Positions 5,038 through 20,680 of a DNA stretch of 64,000 bases are shown in pieces. Each line of letters opens with the position of its first letter. The first letter of the stretch is position 1. The stretch is from positions 198,038-262,037 of the forward strand of contig CAVXVB010000002.1 in assembly GCA_963765205.1 (NCBI GenBank). Reading direction: 5' to 3'. This stretch comes from an uncultured Verrucomicrobiae bacterium (GTDB taxonomy: Bacteria > Verrucomicrobiota > Verrucomicrobiia > Opitutales > JABDGR01). The notes beneath the pieces were generated by a model. That model was not told where the DNA came from and did no database searches. It saw only the letters and a list, made by a program, of their open reading frames with translations. Position numbers and translations under genes: made by a program.

Positions 5038-6345
5038 ATGAACACCTCCGCCCATACGTCCTCCAGCGCCGACCAAATCCTGTCCGGCCAGATGCCGGAG
5101 GACGGCGTGCGCGTGAAAATCGTCGGCGTTGGCGGCGCGGGCACCAACGCGGTGGACCGGCTGCAGCTCGACCATGTCGGCCTGCGGCTGCGCATCGCCG
5201 CGCTGAACACTGACGCGCAGGCGCTCAATTCCTCGCCCGCGCCGGAAAAATTGCTCATTGGACGCGGGCTGACGCGCGGTGTGGGCACGGGCGGCGAGGC
5301 GGACGTCGGCCGCGCGGCCGCCGAGGCCGACCGCGAGCGCATCACCAAAATTTTCCAGGGCATGGACCTGGTGTTTATCGTGGCCGGGCTGGGCGGGGGC
5401 ACGGGCAGCGGCGCGGCGCCGGTCATCGCGCAAATCGCCACGCAGGCGGGCGCGCTGGTCGTCGCCTTCGTCATGCTGCCGTTCACCAACGAGGGCGGCC
5501 GCCGCCGCCAACTCGCCGACCAGGCCCTCGCCGAATTGCGCCAGACCTGCGACGCCGTCATCCCGCTGCCCAACGATCTGCTCCTGCAACACCTGCCCGA
5601 CGACGCCACGGTGCTCGACGCCTTCGGCCAGGCCGACGCGTGGATTGGCCGCGCCATCCGCTCCATCTCCGCGATTTTGTTCCACACCGGCCTCATCAAC
5701 CTCGACTTCGCCACGCTGCGGCGCACCTTCACGCCCCGCGGCGGCAAGACGCTCTTTGGCCTCGGCCACGGTTCCGGCGAGAATTGCGTGGCCGAGGCGT
5801 TGCACGACCTCATGCTCTGCCCGCTGCTGCACACGCCCGAGTTGTCGCGCCGGGCGGACCGGCTGCTGGTTAACATCGTCGGCGGCCCCGAGCTGAGCCT
5901 GGCGCGCGTCAATGAAATCGTTGCCGTCATCGCCGAAAAATTCGGCAGCCGCGAGCAGACTGTTCTCGGTGCGGTGATTGACGAGCGCTTGATCGGGAAA
6001 CTGGAAATTTGCGTCATCGGCATGACGGAAGTGCGGGCCAAAGGCTCGTCGCTGGCCTCGCTGCGCACCGCCCCACCCGGCCTGCGGGCCGACGCGCCCG
6101 CCCCGGCCCCGAACCAGGCCCCGGCGATTTTCGCCCGGCCCCCGGCCGCCGCCGTGGCCGCGCCGCCCGTGCATGAATCCAAGCTGCGCGGGCACAAGGA
6201 CGGCGGCGCGCCGCAAAACGAATTTCACTTTGTCGGCGAGGACGAGCAGCGAGGCTATTTCGACCAGACCGAGCGCAACTTCTTTGAAGGCGAAGACCTC
6301 GACGTGCCCGCCTATTTGCGGCGGGGGATTAAAATTCAGTTGTGA
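5038..6345 (+). CDS. ftsZ: Cell division protein FtsZ (divergent T7 loop)
   Basis: VGVGGAGTNAV, NTDAQAL, GLGGGTGSG tubulin signature, C-terminal DLDVPAYLRR. Confidence 0.95.
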   Translation: MNTSAHTSSSADQILSGQMPEDGVRVKIVGVGGAGTNAVDRLQLDHVGLRLRIAALNTDAQALNSSPAPEKLLIGRGLTRGVGTGGEADVGRAAAEADRERITKIFQGMDLVFIVAGLGGGTGSGAAPVIAQIATQAGALVVAFVMLPFTNEGGRRRQLADQALAELRQTCDAVIPLPNDLLLQHLPDDATVLDAFGQADAWIGRAIRSISAILFHTGLINLDFATLRRTFTPRGGKTLFGLGHGSGENCVAEALHDLMLCPLLHTPELSRRADRLLVNIVGGPELSLARVNEIVAVIAEKFGSREQTVLGAVIDERLIGKLEICVIGMTEVRAKGSSLASLRTAPPGLRADAPAPAPNQAPAIFARPPAAAVAAPPVHESKLRGHKDGGAPQNEFHFVGEDEQRGYFDQTERNFFEGEDLDVPAYLRRGIKIQL

Positions 6346-6348
6346 GGC

Positions 6349-7398
6349 TCACTTCACCAGCAGCGTCGCCAGCCCCAAGAACAGGCCCATGCTGGCCACG
6401 TTGGTCGCGGTGGTGAGGAAAATGCTTGAGGCGGTGACGGGGTCGGCGCCGAATCGCTTAAGGATCAGGGGCACAACCGCGCCGCAGACACCGCTGATCA
6501 CGCAACTGCCGACCATGGAGAGGAACACCACGAGGCCGAGCATGGGGGCGGTGGACAAATGATGGACGGAGGCGACCCCATACATGGCCAGCCCCGCGAC
6601 CAACCCGATGAGCGTGCCATTCATCAAACCGAGCAGGCCTTCTTTGATGACCTGCGCCTTGATCTTGCCTGTTTTCAGATCACCCAGGATCATTCCGCGC
6701 AGGGTGATCGCCAGCGCCTGGCTGCCGGCGTTGCCCGACTGGTCGGCCAGCACTGGCAGAAAAATGGTGAGAATCAGCAGCCGGTCAATGGTGCCTTGGA
6801 ACAAACCGACCACGGCGGCGGCGGCAAAGGAGGTAAGCAGGTTGACCTGCAGCCAGGGCAGCCGGAGCCGCAGGCTTTTTAACCAGGGCGTGGAGGAACG
6901 GACTTCCTTTTCAACGCCCACCATCGCGCCGGGCTGGGCGGTCAACTCGAACGATCTTTTCTGTTCCGCGACGACGCGCTCGTAGAGATTCTTCGTTTCC
7001 TGATGCAGCAGGCGCACTTCGAGCAGGTTATGAACCCGGAGCAACACCTCGGCCAGGTCGAACGGTTTGCTGACGAAATCTTTCGCCCCGGCTTTCAGCG
7101 CGCGCAGTTTATGCTCCGGTTGGGCCGTCAGCACGATGACCGGCAGATAGCTGTCCTTTTCGATTTCCTTCAACTGTTCCATTACCTGGAATCCGTCCAG
7201 GCTGGGCATCTGCAAATCGAGCAGGATCAAGTCATAATGGTGTTGGCGGTGCAGCGCGCCGACTTGGCCCGAGTCCATTGTGGTCGTGATGGCATCATAG
7301 CCGGCCCCGCGCAGCATCTGCTCGAGCAGTGCGACATTGGCCTGTTGATCGTCAACAATCAGGATTTTGCCGTGCAGGATGTCCGCTGAACTGATCAT
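6349..7398 (-). CDS. Receiver domain fused to an MgtE-type magnesium transporter membrane domain
   Basis: N-terminal REC (ILIVDDQ, LLDLQMP, VLTA, VSKPF); C-terminal MgtE membrane motifs RLPWL, SGNAGSQALAITLRG, GADPVTASSIFLTT. Confidence 0.85.
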   Translation of the reverse strand: MISSADILHGKILIVDDQQANVALLEQMLRGAGYDAITTTMDSGQVGALHRQHHYDLILLDLQMPSLDGFQVMEQLKEIEKDSYLPVIVLTAQPEHKLRALKAGAKDFVSKPFDLAEVLLRVHNLLEVRLLHQETKNLYERVVAEQKRSFELTAQPGAMVGVEKEVRSSTPWLKSLRLRLPWLQVNLLTSFAAAAVVGLFQGTIDRLLILTIFLPVLADQSGNAGSQALAITLRGMILGDLKTGKIKAQVIKEGLLGLMNGTLIGLVAGLAMYGVASVHHLSTAPMLGLVVFLSMVGSCVISGVCGAVVPLILKRFGADPVTASSIFLTTATNVASMGLFLGLATLLVK

Positions 7399-7413
7399 GG
7401 CCTGGGTCCTGTG

Positions 7414-9963
7414 TTAGACAATCGAGCCATGGGTTTTTTCGGCAAATTCCAGGGCGTCGTTCAAGGTTTCACTGAATTCCCGGACCTTAATGGGTTTGGT
7501 GAGGTAGCGAAAGAATCCGACCTCGAGGCCCACTTCAATGTCGCGCAACATCGCGTTGGCGCTGATGGCCACGACAGGGATGTGGGCCGTCGCCTGGTCT
7601 TCGCGCAGGATTTTCAAGGCGTCAATCCCGCTGATGCCGGGCAGGTTGATGTCCATCAGGATCACGTCGGGCTGGCTGGCGCGGGCCAGCTCGATGCCGA
7701 GGGTGCCGTTCACCGCCGTCAACAGCTTGATGTCTGCGCGCTGCGCGATGAGTTGCTCGACGAGCATCATGTTCGCCGGGTTGTCCTCGATATAGAGCAC
7801 GGTGTGCATGCGCGCGTCAATCAGGCCGTGCGGTTGCGCGCCAGTGGCTGGCTCGGTCCTTTCCAGGACCAGGGTGGGCGCCGCGGTCGAGAGCAGTTCA
7901 ATCCAGAACACGCTGCCCGCTCCGACGGTGCTTTCCACGCCGAGGACGCCATCCATCAGTTCGGCCAGTTGTTTGGTGACCACCAAGCCGATGCCGGTGC
8001 CCGCGACGCCGCCGGCCTCCTGGCCGAGGCGGTTGAACGGCTGGAAGAGCTGCGCAAGTTTTTCCGGCGCCAGGCCCGCGCCGGTGTCCCGGACGCTGAT
8101 GCGCGTTCGATCCGGGACGATCGTGGCGCAGTCCACGACCACCGTGCCTTTCTCCTTATTGTATTTGATCGCGTTGGAGAGCAGGTTGATGACAATTTGC
8201 TTCAAACGCGTGCGGTCGGCCCAGACAAAACTGGGCTGGTCGAACCGGGGAAAAGTCATATGAATCCCGCGCTGTTGCGCCTGCGGCTCCATCATGGCCT
8301 GGCATTCGGACATGACGTCGGTGAGCGACACCGGCTCCAGCGACAGGGAGACTTTGCCGGACTCGATGACCGCGAGGTCCAGGATTTCGTTGATCAGTTT
8401 GAGCAGATGCCAGCCCGCCTGGAGGATCTGGGCGATACGCGCTGTCTGGACGGGCGTGGGCAACGGTGTCGCCGTCTCCATCAATTGCGCGAAGCCGAGG
8501 ATTGCATTGAGCGGGCTGCGCAGTTCATGGCTCATGCTCGAGAGGAACCCCGATTTGGCGAGGTTGGCCTTTTCCGCGGTGGACTTGGCGCTCTCCAGCT
8601 CGACGTTGGATTCCTGCAAGGCCTGCTCGAAGCGCTTGCGCTCCGTCACGTCGCGTGCGGCGGCGAACACGCCTTGCAGTCGCCGGTCGCGGTCATAGAA
8701 GGTGGTCGCGTTGTAAGACACCACGGTTTCCTTGTCATCGCGTGCGCGCGCGGTGAGTTCGTAGTCGGTGACCTTTTTCTCGTTTAGCACCAGCTTGATG
8801 GCGGCTTCGGCCCGCTCCGGGTCGGTGAAATAGTTTTTGAACGGCGCGCCGATCAATTCGTCGCGCGTGCAGCCGGTGAGCGCCTCCATCTGCTTGTTGA
8901 CGTCGGTGATGATGCCGAGGGGGTCGGTGGTCATCAGCGCGTCAATGTTGGATTCGATGAGGGAGCGGGTGTAGAACTGCTGGTCGCGCAAGCGCTGATC
9001 CAGCTTCTTCTGCTCTTCTTCGACCTGTTTGCGCGCGGTGTTATCCGTGCCAATCAACAGGTAGCCGATGATGCCGCCCTCATCTCCGCGCAACGCCGTG
9101 ACCGACACGACGGCGGGAAAGCGGCTGCCGTCCTTGCGGATGTAGGTCAATTCGTAGATGTCCTCGATCCCGCGCGAGGCCTTGAAAACCAGCGCCTCGA
9201 AGCCCGGCATGATGGTGGTCGCCAGTTCGACGCTCAACGTTTTGGCCCGCGCAATGAGTTCCTGCGAATCGGAAATATCGGCCGGCGTGATTTTGTTCAG
9301 CACTTCCGCCGCGGTGTAGCCGAGCATGCGTTCGGCGCCGACATTGAACAACTGGATGACGCCCTTTTCATCCGTGGCGATGCTCGAGAAATTGGCGCTG
9401 TTGAAGATGGCGCTCTGCAAGGCCCCGGCCTCGAGCAGCGCCTCTTCCGCGCGCTTGCGGGCGCTGTTGTCGGTGCCGATCAGCAAATAGCCGATGATGC
9501 CGCCCCGCTCGTCGCGCAGCGCCGTGACCGACACGACGGCGGGAAAGCGGCTGCCGTCCTTGCGGATGTAGGTCAATTCGTAAATGTCCTCGATGCCGCG
9601 CGAGGCTTTAAACACCAGAGCTTCGAAGCCTGGTGCAATCGTGGTCCCCAGTTCAAGGCTCAAGGCGGCGGCGCGCGCGATGACTTCCTGCGGGTCGGAA
9701 ATGTCCGCGGGCGTGATTTTGTTCATCACGTCTGCGGCCGTGTAGCCCAGCATGCGCTCGGCGCCGACATTGAAAATCTGAATAACGCCCTTTTCATCGG
9801 TGGCGATGCTCGAGAAATTGGCGCTGTTGAGAATTGCGTTCTGCAAGGCTCCCGTCTTTAGCACCGCCTCCTGGCGGCGGACTTCCGTGATGACCTCCAC
9901 CGTGCCGTCGGCCAGATGTTCGACTTCCGGGGTAAATAATACGGGAATTTTCGTGCGGTTCAT
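7414..9963 (-). CDS. PAS-domain hybrid sensor histidine kinase (3 PAS, HisKA, HATPase, REC)
   Basis: Two near-identical PAS domains plus a third; H-box SHELRSPLN, NLLSNAIKY, DTGAG, GTGIGL; C-terminal REC (ILMDINLP). Start set at MNRTK. Confidence 0.92.
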   Translation of the reverse strand: MNRTKIPVLFTPEVEHLADGTVEVITEVRRQEAVLKTGALQNAILNSANFSSIATDEKGVIQIFNVGAERMLGYTAADVMNKITPADISDPQEVIARAAALSLELGTTIAPGFEALVFKASRGIEDIYELTYIRKDGSRFPAVVSVTALRDERGGIIGYLLIGTDNSARKRAEEALLEAGALQSAIFNSANFSSIATDEKGVIQLFNVGAERMLGYTAAEVLNKITPADISDSQELIARAKTLSVELATTIMPGFEALVFKASRGIEDIYELTYIRKDGSRFPAVVSVTALRGDEGGIIGYLLIGTDNTARKQVEEEQKKLDQRLRDQQFYTRSLIESNIDALMTTDPLGIITDVNKQMEALTGCTRDELIGAPFKNYFTDPERAEAAIKLVLNEKKVTDYELTARARDDKETVVSYNATTFYDRDRRLQGVFAAARDVTERKRFEQALQESNVELESAKSTAEKANLAKSGFLSSMSHELRSPLNAILGFAQLMETATPLPTPVQTARIAQILQAGWHLLKLINEILDLAVIESGKVSLSLEPVSLTDVMSECQAMMEPQAQQRGIHMTFPRFDQPSFVWADRTRLKQIVINLLSNAIKYNKEKGTVVVDCATIVPDRTRISVRDTGAGLAPEKLAQLFQPFNRLGQEAGGVAGTGIGLVVTKQLAELMDGVLGVESTVGAGSVFWIELLSTAAPTLVLERTEPATGAQPHGLIDARMHTVLYIEDNPANMMLVEQLIAQRADIKLLTAVNGTLGIELARASQPDVILMDINLPGISGIDALKILREDQATAHIPVVAISANAMLRDIEVGLEVGFFRYLTKPIKVREFSETLNDALEFAEKTHGSIV

Positions 9964-10397: not shown

Positions 10398-11795
10398 TTA
10401 GGTCAGGGACAATTTGCCGGTGCTGTCACCGAGCTGGTCATCCGAGGCGCCCACATGGTCGAGCATGGAGAGCCAGAGGTTGTTGATGGGCGCGCCTGCG
10501 GCATCCATGTGGCGGCCGGTCTTGATGGCATTACCGCCGGCTTTGCCAAGCAGGATCAGCGGCAGGTCATCGTGGTTGTGGCGGTTGCCGTCACTGATGG
10601 CGCCACCGTAGGAGATGAGCGAGTTGTCGAGCAGCGAGCCGTTGCCTTCCTTGATCGAGTCCAGCTTGTCCAGCATATAAACGAACTGCTGCAAGTGGTA
10701 AGCATTGATTTTTTGCAGCAGCGCCATTTTTTCCGGGCTGCCCATGTGGTGGGAGGTGCCGTGGTGCGGAACATTGGCGCCGCCCCAGGGGTAGGACTGG
10801 TTGCTGCCTTCGTCGGCGAAGGGGAAGGTCACGATACGGGTGAGGTCGGCCTGGAAAGCCAGCACCATCATGTCAATCATCAGTTTGATATGCGTGGGGT
10901 ATTCGGTGCTCGAAGTGGAAATGCCCACCTTTTGTTCCAGACTCGAATCGTAGGCCGTCGCGGGCCGCACCGCGCCGGCCGGCAGGGGAGGGGGCGGTTC
11001 GTTGGCGGCACGTTGGAGACGGACTTCAATTTCCCGGACAGAGGTCAAATACTGGTCGAGTTTATCCCGGTCCGTGGCGGTGAGGCCTTTTTGGACGTTG
11101 TTGGCGTCATTAAGGACGAAGTCCAGAATGCTTTTGCTGTCTTTTTCGCGCAAGGCCTTGGCTTCGGGTGTTTCGCCCGGATTGCCGTTGGAGAAAAGGC
11201 GGTCAAAGACGGACTGGGGGTCCACGTCCTTGGCCAGCGGGGTGGTGGGATTGCGCCAGGCGAGATTATGCTCGTAAGCCTTGAGATAGTTGTTGTCTGT
11301 CGCCGCCTTTTTGCCGTCCTCGATCCCGATTTCCAGCGAGGGAAACTTGGTGAAATGGCCGATTTTTTGCGCGGCAATCTGGTCGGCGGAAACGCCGAGA
11401 TGCATGGGCACCGGCGGCTTCCACGGATGCACACCTGTCAGGTAAGCGGCATTGCCGCGGGCATGGTCGCCGCCCCCTTCGCCGTAGGCGTTGGCCTTGT
11501 CGCAGACGAGGTTGCTGATGACCAGCATGCGGTCGCGGTAAGCCTTCATGACGCTGAGGGTGGGCGTAAGTTCATAATCCGCGCCCAAGGTGGCGGGGGT
11601 CCAGTTCTGCATGTCAATGCCGTTAGGGACGTAGATCCAGGCCAGGCGCTTGGGGCCCGCGGCGGCCTTGGCGACGGCGGTGTCGGAGATGGCGGCAAAG
11701 GAGCGGCAGGGCAGGAGGGATTCGAGAAAGGGCAGCGCCATGGCGGTGCCCAGCCCACGCAATACTTTCCGACGGCTGATGGTGTGTGTGATCAT
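10398..11795 (-). CDS. DUF1552 family protein (Tat-like signal)
   Basis: SRRKVLRGLG..LPFLESL, YVPNG, SADQIAA, FPSLEIG, ALQADLTR-like segment, SDGNRHNHDDLP; follows a DUF1592-type gene, the usual arrangement. Confidence 0.9.
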   Translation of the reverse strand: MITHTISRRKVLRGLGTAMALPFLESLLPCRSFAAISDTAVAKAAAGPKRLAWIYVPNGIDMQNWTPATLGADYELTPTLSVMKAYRDRMLVISNLVCDKANAYGEGGGDHARGNAAYLTGVHPWKPPVPMHLGVSADQIAAQKIGHFTKFPSLEIGIEDGKKAATDNNYLKAYEHNLAWRNPTTPLAKDVDPQSVFDRLFSNGNPGETPEAKALREKDSKSILDFVLNDANNVQKGLTATDRDKLDQYLTSVREIEVRLQRAANEPPPPLPAGAVRPATAYDSSLEQKVGISTSSTEYPTHIKLMIDMMVLAFQADLTRIVTFPFADEGSNQSYPWGGANVPHHGTSHHMGSPEKMALLQKINAYHLQQFVYMLDKLDSIKEGNGSLLDNSLISYGGAISDGNRHNHDDLPLILLGKAGGNAIKTGRHMDAAGAPINNLWLSMLDHVGASDDQLGDSTGKLSLT

Positions 11796-14718
11796 GATTG
11801 GTTGTCTCCGGTTGATGATTTTTCTCCTGGTGGATTGCCGCGTCTTTGAAGGAAGGCATCGCTGTGGACGATGGCATGAATCAACGCGGAAAATTTATCA
11901 CCGTTCTTGTGCATGGTCGAGACGATATCGTTGGTGGTGCGGACGTCAAACGGCTCGACATTGCGCCCGAGGGCGTAGGTCAGCATTTTGGTGGCCAGGC
12001 AGCGGCAAAACTGATCTTTGGAGGCCAGCAGGGTTTGTTCCAATTCCTTGGCGCCGTTAAAAGTGGTTCCATCGGGCAGGTGGCCGGAGGCGTCAATGGG
12101 ATCATTATTGATGTCCTTGGTGCGCCAGGCGCCCGTGACATCAAAGTTTTCGAGGCTGAAGCCAATGGCATCCATGCGCTCATGGCAGGAGGCGCACACG
12201 GGATTGGTCCGATGTTGCTCCATTTGCTGGCGCAGCGTGCCCTTGAGTTGTTTTTCGTCGTCGAGGGCGGGAACGTTAGGGGGGGGCGGGGGGGGGCGGA
12301 GTCCAGTAGGTTCTCCAGCACCCATTTGCCGCGCTGCACCGGGGAGGTGCGCGTGTTGTAGGACGTGATGGCGAGGATGCTGGCCTGGGTGATCAGGCCG
12401 CCGCGCGGGGAGTTTTTCGGGAAGGTAACCCGTTGGAACGCATCGGTGAAATTGCCCTCCAGGCCGTAGAGCTTGGCCAGTGGCGCGTTGACAAAGCTGT
12501 AATCGGCATCAATGAAATCAAGCACGCTGCGGTCTTCATCCTTGATGCTGGAGAAAAACATCTGTGTTTCCGTCAGCATCGCCGTCTTTAGTTCAGGGGT
12601 GAAATTGGGAAATTTATCGGAGTCGGGATTGACGTCCTCCACTTTGCGCAATTGCAGCCACTGACCGGCAAAATTGTTCACGAGGGCCTCGGCCTTCGGA
12701 TCCTTGAGCATGCGCGTGACCTGCTCGTCAAGATGGGCATGCAACTGGCCTTTGGCGGCCAGGGCGAACAACTCGTCGTCGGGCATGGTGCTCCACAGGA
12801 AATAGGACAGACGGGAGGCCAGCTCGTAGTCGTTGAGGGTGTGAATGTTATTCGGCTCGCCCGGCTGCGGGTCTTGCTCAATGCGGAACAGGAAATTGGG
12901 GTTGAGCAGCACCGCTTGCAGCGCAACAGTCACGCTTTTTTCAAAAGGACGGTCGGGGGTGTCCACGGAAGTAAAGAGGCCCATGAATTTGTTCACCTCG
13001 TCATCGGTGGCGGGCCGGCGGTAGGCGCGGGTGACAAAGTTGCGGATGATTTTTTCCGCCGCCTGGGTCCTGGTCAAAGTATTGGAGGGGTGCGCGACCA
13101 TCACGCTCTGGTAGCTCTTGGGCATGCGCTCGGGCATCTCGGTGGCGTTGGTGAACTGGGGGCCTTCCACTTTGAGGCTAAGGACGCCGAGGATGGTCGC
13201 GCCGGGGACGACGGGCGTGGGCCCCGGGGGGGGGCCTCCACGACGGCCAGCACCCGCGCCGGCAAAATTTCGACCGGCGGTGCCCCGGGCACCGGCTGGA
13301 GCAGCCGATGAGGCGGCGGCGGGCGCAGCAGCCGGAGCGGCACTGGCCGCAGCATCGCTGCCACCGGCAGAGGCGGCGGGATCGGCAGCGGCAATGGCAC
13401 CGGCAGGAGCGGAGGACGAGATGGAAGCAGGCGCGGCGGAGGGTGTAGGAGCCGTTTGGTCAGCGGCCGGACTGGCCGCACTGGGGCTGGGATTAGCCGC
13501 AGCAGTTGCAGCCGCCGTCACGGCGGCATTGTAATCATCAAGTGTGGCACCATTGCGGAAAGCCAAAGTTATGCTATGCGGGCCAGCCGTGACGTGAATT
13601 TTCGGCGAGGCAACTTCCTGCGGGGCGTTCGCTACGGCCGAGACCTTCAGGGAATACCGGTCGGGATTCTGATCTGCTCCTTGGATGTTGGCATCAACCA
13701 CCGGTATATTGCCATCAAGGTAGAAGAGAACATTAGCGGTAGGCCCGGCGTTGCCACGGCCTCCGCCGTTGCCGCCACCCGCGTAGCCCTTTAGACTAAA
13801 AATGTAATCGCCCTCCACGGGAAAATTGTAATTCACATAAATGTAGCCGGATCGTTGGAAAACGCGGCCGAGTACCACGGGTGGGCCACCTCGGCCGCCG
13901 CGCCCGGCACCGGCATTCTGACCGGCATTCTGGCTGGCCGCAGCCAACGCCGCCGCTGCGGGCACGGGCGGAGCCGCCGGGGCCGGATTGGTTTTGGGAA
14001 TGTCCCCTTCGAGGGCTGTGGCGTCAAATACTTTGCTCGGGGGCGGCACCGTCGGGTCGGTGAACACGGCGGCATCCAAGGATACCTCGGCGGCTTTGAT
14101 ATATTTCTCGAACAGCACGGGTGCAATGTTCAGCGCGTCACCATTGTTGTCGAAACCATCGCCGGCGTCATCCGCCGGGAAGCTGTCCGCGGGATGCAGG
14201 TCAATGGCGAGCAAATCGCGGACGGTATTGTCGTATTCGACGCGGTTGAGGCGGTGGATGGTGACGCGGCCCGGGTCAATGGGTCCGCTGGCATAATAGC
14301 TGGTTGTGTATTTATCCATCCAGGCGACGACCGTGTGATACTCGTCTTCCGTGGGCCGCTTCTCTTCCTTGGGCGGCATTTTGCGGGTGTTAAGCATCTC
14401 CATCGCCTTCGCGATGGTGGGGACGCCTTTGGCCAGCGAGGCATCATCGTGGAACGTATCCAAGCGCACATCCCCTTCGGTGTCATCGGGGCCATGGCAT
14501 TCGTAACAATGCGCGGCCAGAAAGGGCTGAACAGTCTGCTGGAATTCCGCAAAAGTGGGGATCGCGGGTTGCGGCGGCGGGGTCTGCGCCAGCTTGGGAT
14601 TCGAGCACGCCAGCAGCACCAAGGCGGTAAGACTCGAGGCAATGCTGATCCGTTGGAAGGGCCGTTGGGAAAAGCCGGCCGGTTCCTTTGCTTGGTGGGG
14701 TTTACCAAGGTGAAACAT
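11792..14718 (-). CDS. Planctomycete-type cytochrome c / DUF1587-1592-1595-1588-1585 protein, frameshifted in a poly-C run near 12290
   Basis: CYECH, HRLNRVEYDNTVRDL, ELASRLSYFLWS, TSPVQRGKWVLENLL in one frame; PPPNVPAL..HRTNPVCASCH..KMLTYALGR continues in another frame. The junction is G8-C-G9 on the + strand (12279-12296). Confidence 0.88.
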
Positions 14719-19678: not shown

Positions 19679-20680
19679 GAGCATTTTCAAAAATAGTGTA
19701 GCCATTTTTAGAAAGGTGTGTTATATTGCGGGCGCATGAAAACCATCTCGCTGGATTTACGGGAACGCATCCTGGCCGCGTATGACGCGGACGAGGGCAC
19801 GCGGGAGGAGGTGGCTTGGCGCTTCCGGGTTTCCCTGGGGCTGGTCAAGAAGCTGCTCCAGCAGCGCCGCCGCCTCGGCGACCTGCGCCCCCAGCGCCAC
19901 CGCAGCGGGCGCAAGCCGCGCCTGCGCGAACAACACCGTCAGCGCCTGCGCCGGCTGGTCGCCGAGAAGCCTGACCGCACCTTGCGCGAATTGCGGGAGG
20001 CGTTGGGCCTGGACTGCGCGCTGCCGACGATTCATTATGCCCTGGCCACGCTGGGCCTGACCTATAAAAAAAACGCTGCGCGCCGCCGAGCAAGACCGGC
20101 CCGACCTCGCCCGGCGGCGGCGGCGCTGGCGGCGCCGGCAAGGCGGCTGGGACCCCGCGCGGCTCGTTTTCCTCGATGAAGCCGGCGGCCAAAACCAATA
20201 TGACGCGCCTGCGCGGCCGCGCCCCCCGCGGCCAGCGGCTGCGGGCCAAATGTCCGCACGGGCACTGGCGCACCACCACGATGCTCTCCTCCATCCGGCT
20301 GGACGGTTCGACCGCCTGCCTGACCATCGAGGCGGCCACCGACACGGACGTCTTCCGCGCCTATGTGCGCGCAGTGCTTGCGCCCACCCTGCGCCCCGGC
20401 GATGTGGTGATCATGGACAACCTCAGCCCGCACAAAAACGACCACACCCGCACGCTGATCCGCGCCGCCGGCGCGAGCATCGAGTTCCTGCCCGCCTACT
20501 CGCCCGACCTCAACCCCATCGAAATGATGTGGAGCAAAGTCAAATCCCTGCTGCGCGCCGCCGAGGCCCGCACCGCGCCCGAACTGCTCACCGCCATCGG
20601 CGCGGCCCTGCGCCAGGTCACCGCCCAGGATGCCGCCCATTGGTTGGCCCATTGTGGCTACAGCTTTATCTAAAATGCTC
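19679..20680 (+). mobile_element. IS630-family insertion sequence
   Basis: TA on both sides (19677-78 and 20681-82). Imperfect terminal IRs: GAGCATTTT-CAAAAATAG-TGTAGCCA (left) and GAGCATTTT-AGATAAAGC-TGTAGCCA (right, reverse complement). Confidence 0.93.
19736..20673 (+). pseudogene. IS630 transposase split over three frames
   Basis: HTH part MKTISLDLRERI..TYKK; A8 run at 20066-20073; next frame reads TLRAAEQDRPD..LVFLDE; a second shift near 20185 leads into AKTNMTR..MDNL..LPAYSPDLNPIE. Confidence 0.85.

Follow-up and report, generated by a model that had tools for sequence, protein, structure and literature searches.

Which output does a two-component system command when the receiver domain of its response regulator is joined to the membrane part of an ion channel? 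Response regulators act via DNA, RNA, enzymes or protein binding, and the question is raised here by a gene in a 64,000-nucleotide stretch (hereafter, the window) of contig CAVXVB010000002.1 (positions 198,038–262,037; GenBank assembly GCA_963765205.1) from an uncultured Verrucomicrobiae bacterium. The predicted product consists of a receiver (REC) domain, a helical linker and the membrane domain of the Mg2+ channel MgtE, and is encoded next to a hybrid histidine kinase. With a probability of roughly 0.5, we propose that this protein is a response regulator with an MgtE-derived pore as its output and a remodelled filter, that is, a homodimeric cation channel gated by PAS-kinase phosphorylation of Asp61.

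The open reading frame (ORF) is intact (Table 1), and the residues that define a two-component receiver are all present, with the phospho-acceptor Asp61 located in the motif LLDLQMP. The Pfam match to MgtE spans residues 214–342 (E 1.1e-23; 84.2 bits against a cut-off of 27.6), and the full-length score of the fusion for TIGR00400 (84.4) is below the cut-off of that family (232.75). The Pfam scan detected neither MgtE_N nor CBS in the fusion protein, in which REC stands in their place. The initial annotation of this DNA, made from the letters alone, had described this order of domains, the lack of both N and CBS domains and a co-oriented kinase with three PAS domains located 15 nt upstream of the fusion, and was accurate in each of these respects, the intergenic gap being 7399–7413. 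A public contig, which may come from the source sample, covers positions 6528–7492, that is, crosses the junction between the two parts, with 0 differences.

Table 1 Features of the REC-MgtE locus (window coordinates)
Feature	Positions	Strand	Basis
REC-linker-MgtE (transmembrane) fusion gene, 349 aa	6349..7398	-	ORF call, Pfam, family of relatives
Receiver domain, aa 12-122 (D16, D17, D61, T91, K111)	7033..7365	-	Pfam PF00072 (Response_reg), E 2.8e-27
Codon of the predicted phospho-acceptor Asp61	7216..7218	-	D61 kept in 192/192 fusions
Helical linker, aa 123-160, predicted parallel coiled coil	6919..7032	-	Cyclase-derived signalling helix leading into retained MgtE plug segment
Fusion junction, aa 146-152	6943..6963	-	Overlap of alignments to REC-cyclase-type sibling (1-152) and CBS-MgtE (146-348)
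MgtE membrane (pore) domain, aa 176-349	6352..6873	-	PF01769; sequence match to PDB 4U9N/2YVX, E 2.5e-13 / 2.9e-12
Asp219, at the Thermus G325 hinge position in TM2	6742..6744	-	Alignment; modelled dimer interface; new pore acid, fusions only
Asn333 in TM5, in place of the Mg2+ selectivity Asp (Thermus D432)	6400..6402	-	Alignment
Soluble hybrid histidine kinase, 849 aa	7414..9963	-	PAS x3, HisKA, HATPase_c, REC (Pfam)

The fusion is neither a singleton nor an assembly chimera, two of the outcomes that the initial annotation had singled out beforehand. The best 120 database matches, the query itself aside, are all full-length REC+MgtE proteins with 65–85% identity, and among the organisms named as their sources are Ferrovum, Gallionella, Sulfuricella and Desulfuromonadaceae. 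Pooling the searches and retaining proteins with both domains nearly complete yielded 192 fusions, a lower bound that is biased towards the two queries, along with 131 unfused relatives that possess a full membrane domain. Within the fusion set, the active site of the receiver is almost uniformly conserved (Asp61 in 192/192, Thr or Ser91 in 192/192, Lys111 in 190/192). For the membrane domain, the omega values (NG86) are 0.11–0.32 in comparisons of 15 loci with the window and 0.03–0.28 in seven other pairs, which include the D/N, D/S and G/N pore types defined below. Both domains of the fusion are under purifying selection, and a decaying pseudo-domain is ruled out by the membrane-domain omega, which is well below 1. 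Close matches (74–82%) were found in three of the six genomes of the same genus and in one of three other genomes of the same family; in a sample of 300 other genomes of the phylum, the seven strong matches all turned out, on inspection, to be of the CBS type. Thus, the distribution of the REC-MgtE fusion is patchy. In the ESM Atlas, the family corresponds to one cluster of 62 proteins (REC in 100%, MgtE in 87%, by automatic name only), and in public databases these fusion proteins already carry annotations for both domains. An intact allele is on record for a cultured host, Ferrovum myxofaciens.

The two parts of the protein can be traced to distinct donors. Residues 1–152 show 73% identity to a sibling regulator of the REC-cyclase type, and residues 146–348 show 64% identity to a CBS-containing MgtE of about 410 aa (CBS-TM subfamily, e.g. 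P0124). The junction falls after the CBS pair and before the membrane domain, in what is the plug-helix segment of Thermus MgtE; in the available text of PMC5882242, PMC4241985 and PMC8104411, the plug helix (246–263) is the element that shuts the pore from the cytosolic side. By sequence comparison, the fusion connects REC and the signalling helix of a REC-nucleotide cyclase, in helical register, to the plug segment of a CBS-type MgtE. In the tree of membrane domains, 190 of the fusions form one clade (support 0.90) that is nested in the subfamily with CBS and transmembrane (TM) domains, whereas the remaining two, P0210 and P0314, group with N-CBS-TM proteins (support 0.998). The latter pair, which is also joined in the plug segment, is, judging by this tree, a second, independent origin of the REC-MgtE fusion. 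In P0210 and P0314, the receiver belongs to the same family, the filter is the canonical G/D and the linker is 18 residues shorter.

The linkers vary by whole heptads, with the phase kept: the observed lengths are 46 (60 sequences), 53 (one sequence) and 74 residues (129 sequences), that is, differ in steps of 7 and 28, and the second fusion has linkers of 28 residues (two sequences). Among 120 sequences, the switch between the short and the long linker occurred 14 times, on the REC tree and on the TM tree alike. The long linker is found in the cyclase siblings as well, so that the length pattern is partly inherited.

Structural modelling is compatible with signal transfer through this linker. 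The AlphaFold2 monomer contains a continuous helix (residues 115–154; mean pLDDT 77.7) that runs from alpha5 of REC towards the membrane domain. The dimer model scored 0.69, compared to 0.00 for the best of three controls, and the runs agreed in at least 94% of the contacts, with pLDDT of at least 82; of the solved one-chain pairs, 20 of 30 attain the mark that this model passes, as does one of 23 single chains, and the pass may partly come from likeness to the solved MgtE dimers. The modelled interface starts with receiver residues 97–107 and 116–128, continues through the self-contacts 131–131, 138–138 and 142–142, and extends into the membrane helices, with residues 218–220, 329 and 333 forming part of it. 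In the predicted arrangement, the two linkers would form a parallel coiled coil that leads from the alpha4-beta5-alpha5 face of the receiver into the pore, and the protein would form a homodimer whose two-fold axis runs through the pore, as in MgtE. Comparison of the folds is less discriminating for the membrane part: the low-confidence monomer (pLDDT 66) matches MgtE 8H5E with Z 8.4 (root-mean-square deviation 5.1, 138 residues aligned), and unrelated helical membrane proteins fall within 1 Z of this value. Among the matches listed, Foldseek with the full model retrieved receiver-type proteins only. For the receiver, PleD is the top match in both sequence and fold, and WspR is among the fold matches.

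The genomic neighbourhood ties the fusion to a kinase family. Counted by hand, 80 metagenome loci comprised 25 with the fusion, 51 with a CBS-type MgtE and four with a partial gene. A related kinase is located directly upstream of the fusion in 15 of the 25 fusion loci and one receiver gene away in two; four loci end at the contig edge, and the kinase is absent in the other four. The kinase is directly upstream also in all four relatives (4/4) and, among eight loci from named genomes, in four (one with a different domain order), with one more at a distance of one gene, one at an edge and two in which the kinase was not found. These synteny counts contain three duplicate pairs of loci.

The kinase of the window retains HisKA His479 (nt 8527–8529), REC Asp771 (nt 7651–7653) and intact N/G-box and H-box motifs; neither a hydrophobic TM helix nor an Hpt match was detected in it. 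The source genome (4.02 Mb, 92% complete) encodes several Hpt domains elsewhere. All other receivers in this genome are at most 41% identical to that of the fusion, which makes the fusion the only local member of the sibling receiver family and leaves the kinase with no other obvious partner. In the kinase, the tandem PAS region (9004–9888, reverse strand) is mostly 80–93% identical across loci from many phyla; the PAS pair produced no sequence match in the PDB. A kaiC-kaiB pair was considered as a general input to the kinase and rejected, being found directly upstream of the kinase in a single locus of all loci (L006:1939–4051). In the genome G000, contig C7 carries a kaiC together with two kaiB-like genes.

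Sibling regulators that follow the same kinase family and have a nearly identical receiver carry nucleotide cyclase, GGDEF and DUF1003 outputs according to Pfam, and, as judged by eye, HD-GYP-, PP2C- and AAA-like ones. Because these siblings with other outputs are preceded by the same kinase family, the cassette is modular, and the pore fills its output slot. REC-DUF1003, a second fusion of a receiver with a membrane domain, is located directly behind REC-MgtE in three loci (L002:9151–10152, L003:3394–4347 and L111:6629–7597). In L115:2002–4310 (and in L113, which is 98% identical), tandem REC-MgtE paralogues follow one kinase, one with the D/N pore type and a short linker and the other with S/D and a long linker; this arrangement hints that pores of different types serve different functions.

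In the mechanism that we envisage, the PAS domains of the kinase would sense a cytoplasmic signal, and His479 would phosphorylate Asp61 either directly or via Asp771 and an Hpt protein encoded elsewhere. Phosphorylation would shift the coiled coil, as in the parental REC-cyclase, and the shifted coiled coil would move the plug segment retained from MgtE along with the cytoplasmic gate, so that the pore opens or closes. The gate would then follow the cytoplasmic PAS signal rather than the Mg2+/ATP feedback.

What this pore might conduct depends on the filter, where the fusion departs from MgtE. In the alignment to Thermus MgtE, Asn333 corresponds to D432 and Asp219 to G325, substitutions that the initial annotation had missed; of the three hinge glycines, G325, G328 and G435, one is kept (D219, G222 and S336, respectively), and Ser336 is found also in 26 of the 131 unfused relatives. 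The available text of PMC4241985 describes D432 as the sole conserved acid of the pore and the D432N and D432A variants as devoid of Mg2+ transport, and gives the carbonyls of P321, L324 and A428 as further contributors to the Mg2+ site. In the portion of PMC8104411 at hand, MgtE complementation was nearly lost in G325A and G435A and lost in G328A. Across the 192 fusions, the residue pairs at positions 219 and 333 are D/N (71), G/D (45), G/N (33), S/D (32), D/D (4), A/N (3), D/S (2) and Y/N (1), with one sequence cut short. Asp219 is present in 77 of the 192 fusions compared to none of the 131 unfused relatives, and only four of these 77 keep Asp333 as well. Position 333 is Asp in 81 of the fusions against 123/131 unfused relatives, and Asn or Ser in 110. 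The CBS-bearing metagenome loci are G/D at both sites without exception (51/51). An acid at one or the other position is retained in 154 of the fusions, and neither is present in 37. With Asp219, a negative-charge pair would be kept beside the old Mg2+ site, so that cations would still move through the pore, probably without the Mg2+ selectivity of MgtE. The two acids strongly exclude each other by a raw Fisher test (p 2.6e-9; first 120 sequences), and relocation of the charge from position 333 to 219 is best considered a lead, not a result.

The idea in the initial annotation, that phosphorylation gates the pore directly, is favoured by the position of the junction in the gating segment of MgtE, the heptad phase and the coiled coil in the dimer model; the ordinary Mg2+ pore that it assumed fits poorly with the D432 to Asn333 replacement. 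Given that D432N lacks Mg2+ transport in Thermus, complementation of Mg2+ uptake could fail for this protein even if the gating were real.

Several observations weigh against a phosphorylation-gated cation channel. The residue present at 333 is the very change that abolishes Mg2+ transport in Thermus MgtE, and D219 and S336 occupy the sites, G325 and G435, at which even Ala nearly abolishes complementation. The acid-free G/N group is conserved like the others (86% mean TM identity, omega 0.10 for one pair), and the conservation of acid-free fusions implies that a charged filter is not always what selection keeps; this group provides the strongest argument that Mg2+ does not pass through some members of the family at least. 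The 219/333 exchange is non-significant after phylogenetic correction, and corrected mutual information places this pair 127th among 16290; there are only 2–5 supported independent pairs on the tree, so that this test is unable to reach significance. Truncated alleles occur next to intact ones (Ferrovum records, L101), which indicates that the gene is dispensable in some lineages. Finally, the heptad steps of the linker, which are present in the REC-cyclase siblings too, may be inherited by recombination.

Some of these points would be accommodated if the membrane domain did not conduct at all, being either a pseudo-channel that anchors or dimerizes the receiver, or a sensor of ions or of the membrane state by which the receiver, as a phosphate sink or a modulator of the kinase, is tuned, with the signal passing from the pore to the receiver. 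We regard this, the leading alternative, as unlikely, if far from negligible. Asn333 as the equivalent of a transport-dead mutant, the prevalence of Asn or Ser at this position in the fusions as opposed to Asp in the unfused relatives, and the conserved fusions that lack both pore acids all fit such a role, the genome has an MgtA ATPase (above the cut-off) available for Mg2+ uptake, and the SLC5/STAC kinases CbrA and CrbS, which carry transporter-like domains, reportedly provide a precedent for sensor domains of this kind (PMC9100948). Nevertheless, the canonical Asp is retained by the 81 fusions mentioned above, a position that lines the pore has gained an acid in the fusions only, and every sibling receiver behind this kinase family has an output domain; a phosphate sink would, furthermore, have no sibling regulator to compete with in the source genome.

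The reading of the initial annotation, a channel gated by phosphorylation with the Mg2+ selectivity of MgtE intact, would require Asp219 to replace D432 fully and appears quite improbable. The use of the L324 carbonyl, beside G325, by the M1 site, as far as the available MgtE reports go, would place Asp219 at about the right depth, the excess of D/N over D/D is in line with a replacement, and the fusion is the single MgtE-family match in the source genome, in which no CorA match was detected either, given its 92% completeness. However, the same available reports link selectivity to the exact geometry of D432 around hydrated Mg2+ and identify G325 as a gating hinge, MgtA is present in the genome, and, among the loci whose neighbours were scanned, a Mg2+ transporter (MgtA) is found near L131 only.

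About equally doubtful is a conducting pore in which the receiver and the coiled coil act as a static clamp in place of the CBS pair, with gating independent of phosphorylation. MgtE without the N domain still transports, according to the accessible part of PMC11309985, TM-only classes of MgtE exist (bioRxiv 2025.05.26.656215), and some fusion loci have no related kinase nearby; against this, the phospho-acceptor is invariant in an intact active site and the kinase is usually adjacent. That the fusion results from neutral shuffling of domains in a REC cassette prone to recombination, or from chimeric assembly, is largely refuted and highly improbable, inasmuch as the free exchange of outputs among the sibling receivers, the patchy distribution and the truncated alleles that might suggest it are set against the 192 full-length proteins, an omega that stays well under 1, a junction-spanning contig and an independent second origin.

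The putative phosphorylation-gated channel can be compared with several known systems. With Thermus thermophilus MgtE (PDB 2YVX, 2ZY9, 4U9L, 4U9N, 8H5E; TIGR00400), it shares a homologous membrane domain, a predicted homodimer with a central interface, the end of the plug segment and the equivalents of P321, G328 and N329, but it has a receiver and a coiled coil where MgtE has its N and CBS domains, and, in addition to the three substitutions at D432, G325 and G435, Ser at the equivalents of N332 and N424. The fusion is not a canonical MgtE: its cytosolic domains are different, the Asp of the filter is replaced, and so are two of the three hinge glycines. The CBS-TM subfamily, which corresponds to the class of that name in bioRxiv 10.1101/2025.05.26.656215, is the pore donor, whose members keep the CBS pair and the G/D pore sites. 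The regulators with REC, a coiled coil and an enzyme, in particular the siblings with class III nucleotide cyclases, are the donors of the receiver and linker and share the kinase partner family, PleD and WspR being analogues with solved structures; unlike REC-cyclase, PleD and WspR, the fusion has a membrane pore as its output, the chain being cut at the cyclase signalling helix and continuing as the MgtE plug segment. The SLC5/STAC transporter-kinase fusions similarly combine a membrane transport domain with a two-component module; there, however, the transporter is on the input side of the kinase, whereas here the pore takes the place of a response regulator's output.

REC-MgtE is a real, widespread and conserved family, apparently undescribed. 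Our literature searches, judged mostly from titles and abstract starts, produced no paper describing such a fusion. The main text of a classification of MgtE in 27,742 genomes (bioRxiv 10.1101/2025.05.26.656215) recognizes the types N-CBS-TM, CBS-TM, TM, TM-TM and mini-N, and none with a receiver; its supplements and tables could list REC fusions among the TM-only types. In the available text of an archaeal two-component census (PMC5847659), a term search found no mention of MgtE or of a transporter. Rare REC-transporter fusions are reportedly listed in a 2010 review of regulator output domains by Galperin, in which case the architecture class may already be catalogued.

Turning to the setting of the locus, the cassette ends 3 nt from the stop codon of ftsZ, which is on the opposite strand (6345–6349). 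Neither ftsZ nor the DUF1552 gene is present in the stretches examined from four close relatives; hence, the two-gene unit appears to move. Upstream of DUF1552, a DUF1592/PSCyt gene (11792–14718, reverse strand) contains a possible frameshift (ORFs 11980–14718 and 11792–12325), and its PSCyt3 is matched only to 54 of 98 positions. An ORF at 19718–20179 (forward strand) resembles, by eye, the N-terminal part of an IS630-type transposase. A scan for promoters and terminators gave 0 promoter-like and three terminator-like sites, with no excess over shuffles; the membrane domain had no read cover in small-share runs, a result uninformative on habitat.

Beyond the protein of the window, and somewhat more tentatively, we suggest that the family could comprise natural phosphorylation-gated channels in which the regulator itself is the channel, such that neither transcription nor a second messenger would be needed for the cytoplasmic PAS signal to alter ion flux or membrane potential, and in which the filter charge has been moved or removed (G/D, S/D, D/N, G/N) to yield differing selectivities on one gating module, an architecture that would have arisen at least twice. 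The family constitutes a natural experiment on two questions: does pulling the plug helix suffice to gate the MgtE pore, and can the filter carboxylate move from TM5 to TM2 and alter selectivity? The small two-gene unit is, moreover, suited to an engineered kinase-controlled channel. If phosphorylation-gated conduction is true, REC-MgtE would represent a new class of two-component output, linking phosphorelay directly to bacterial electrophysiology or ion balance.

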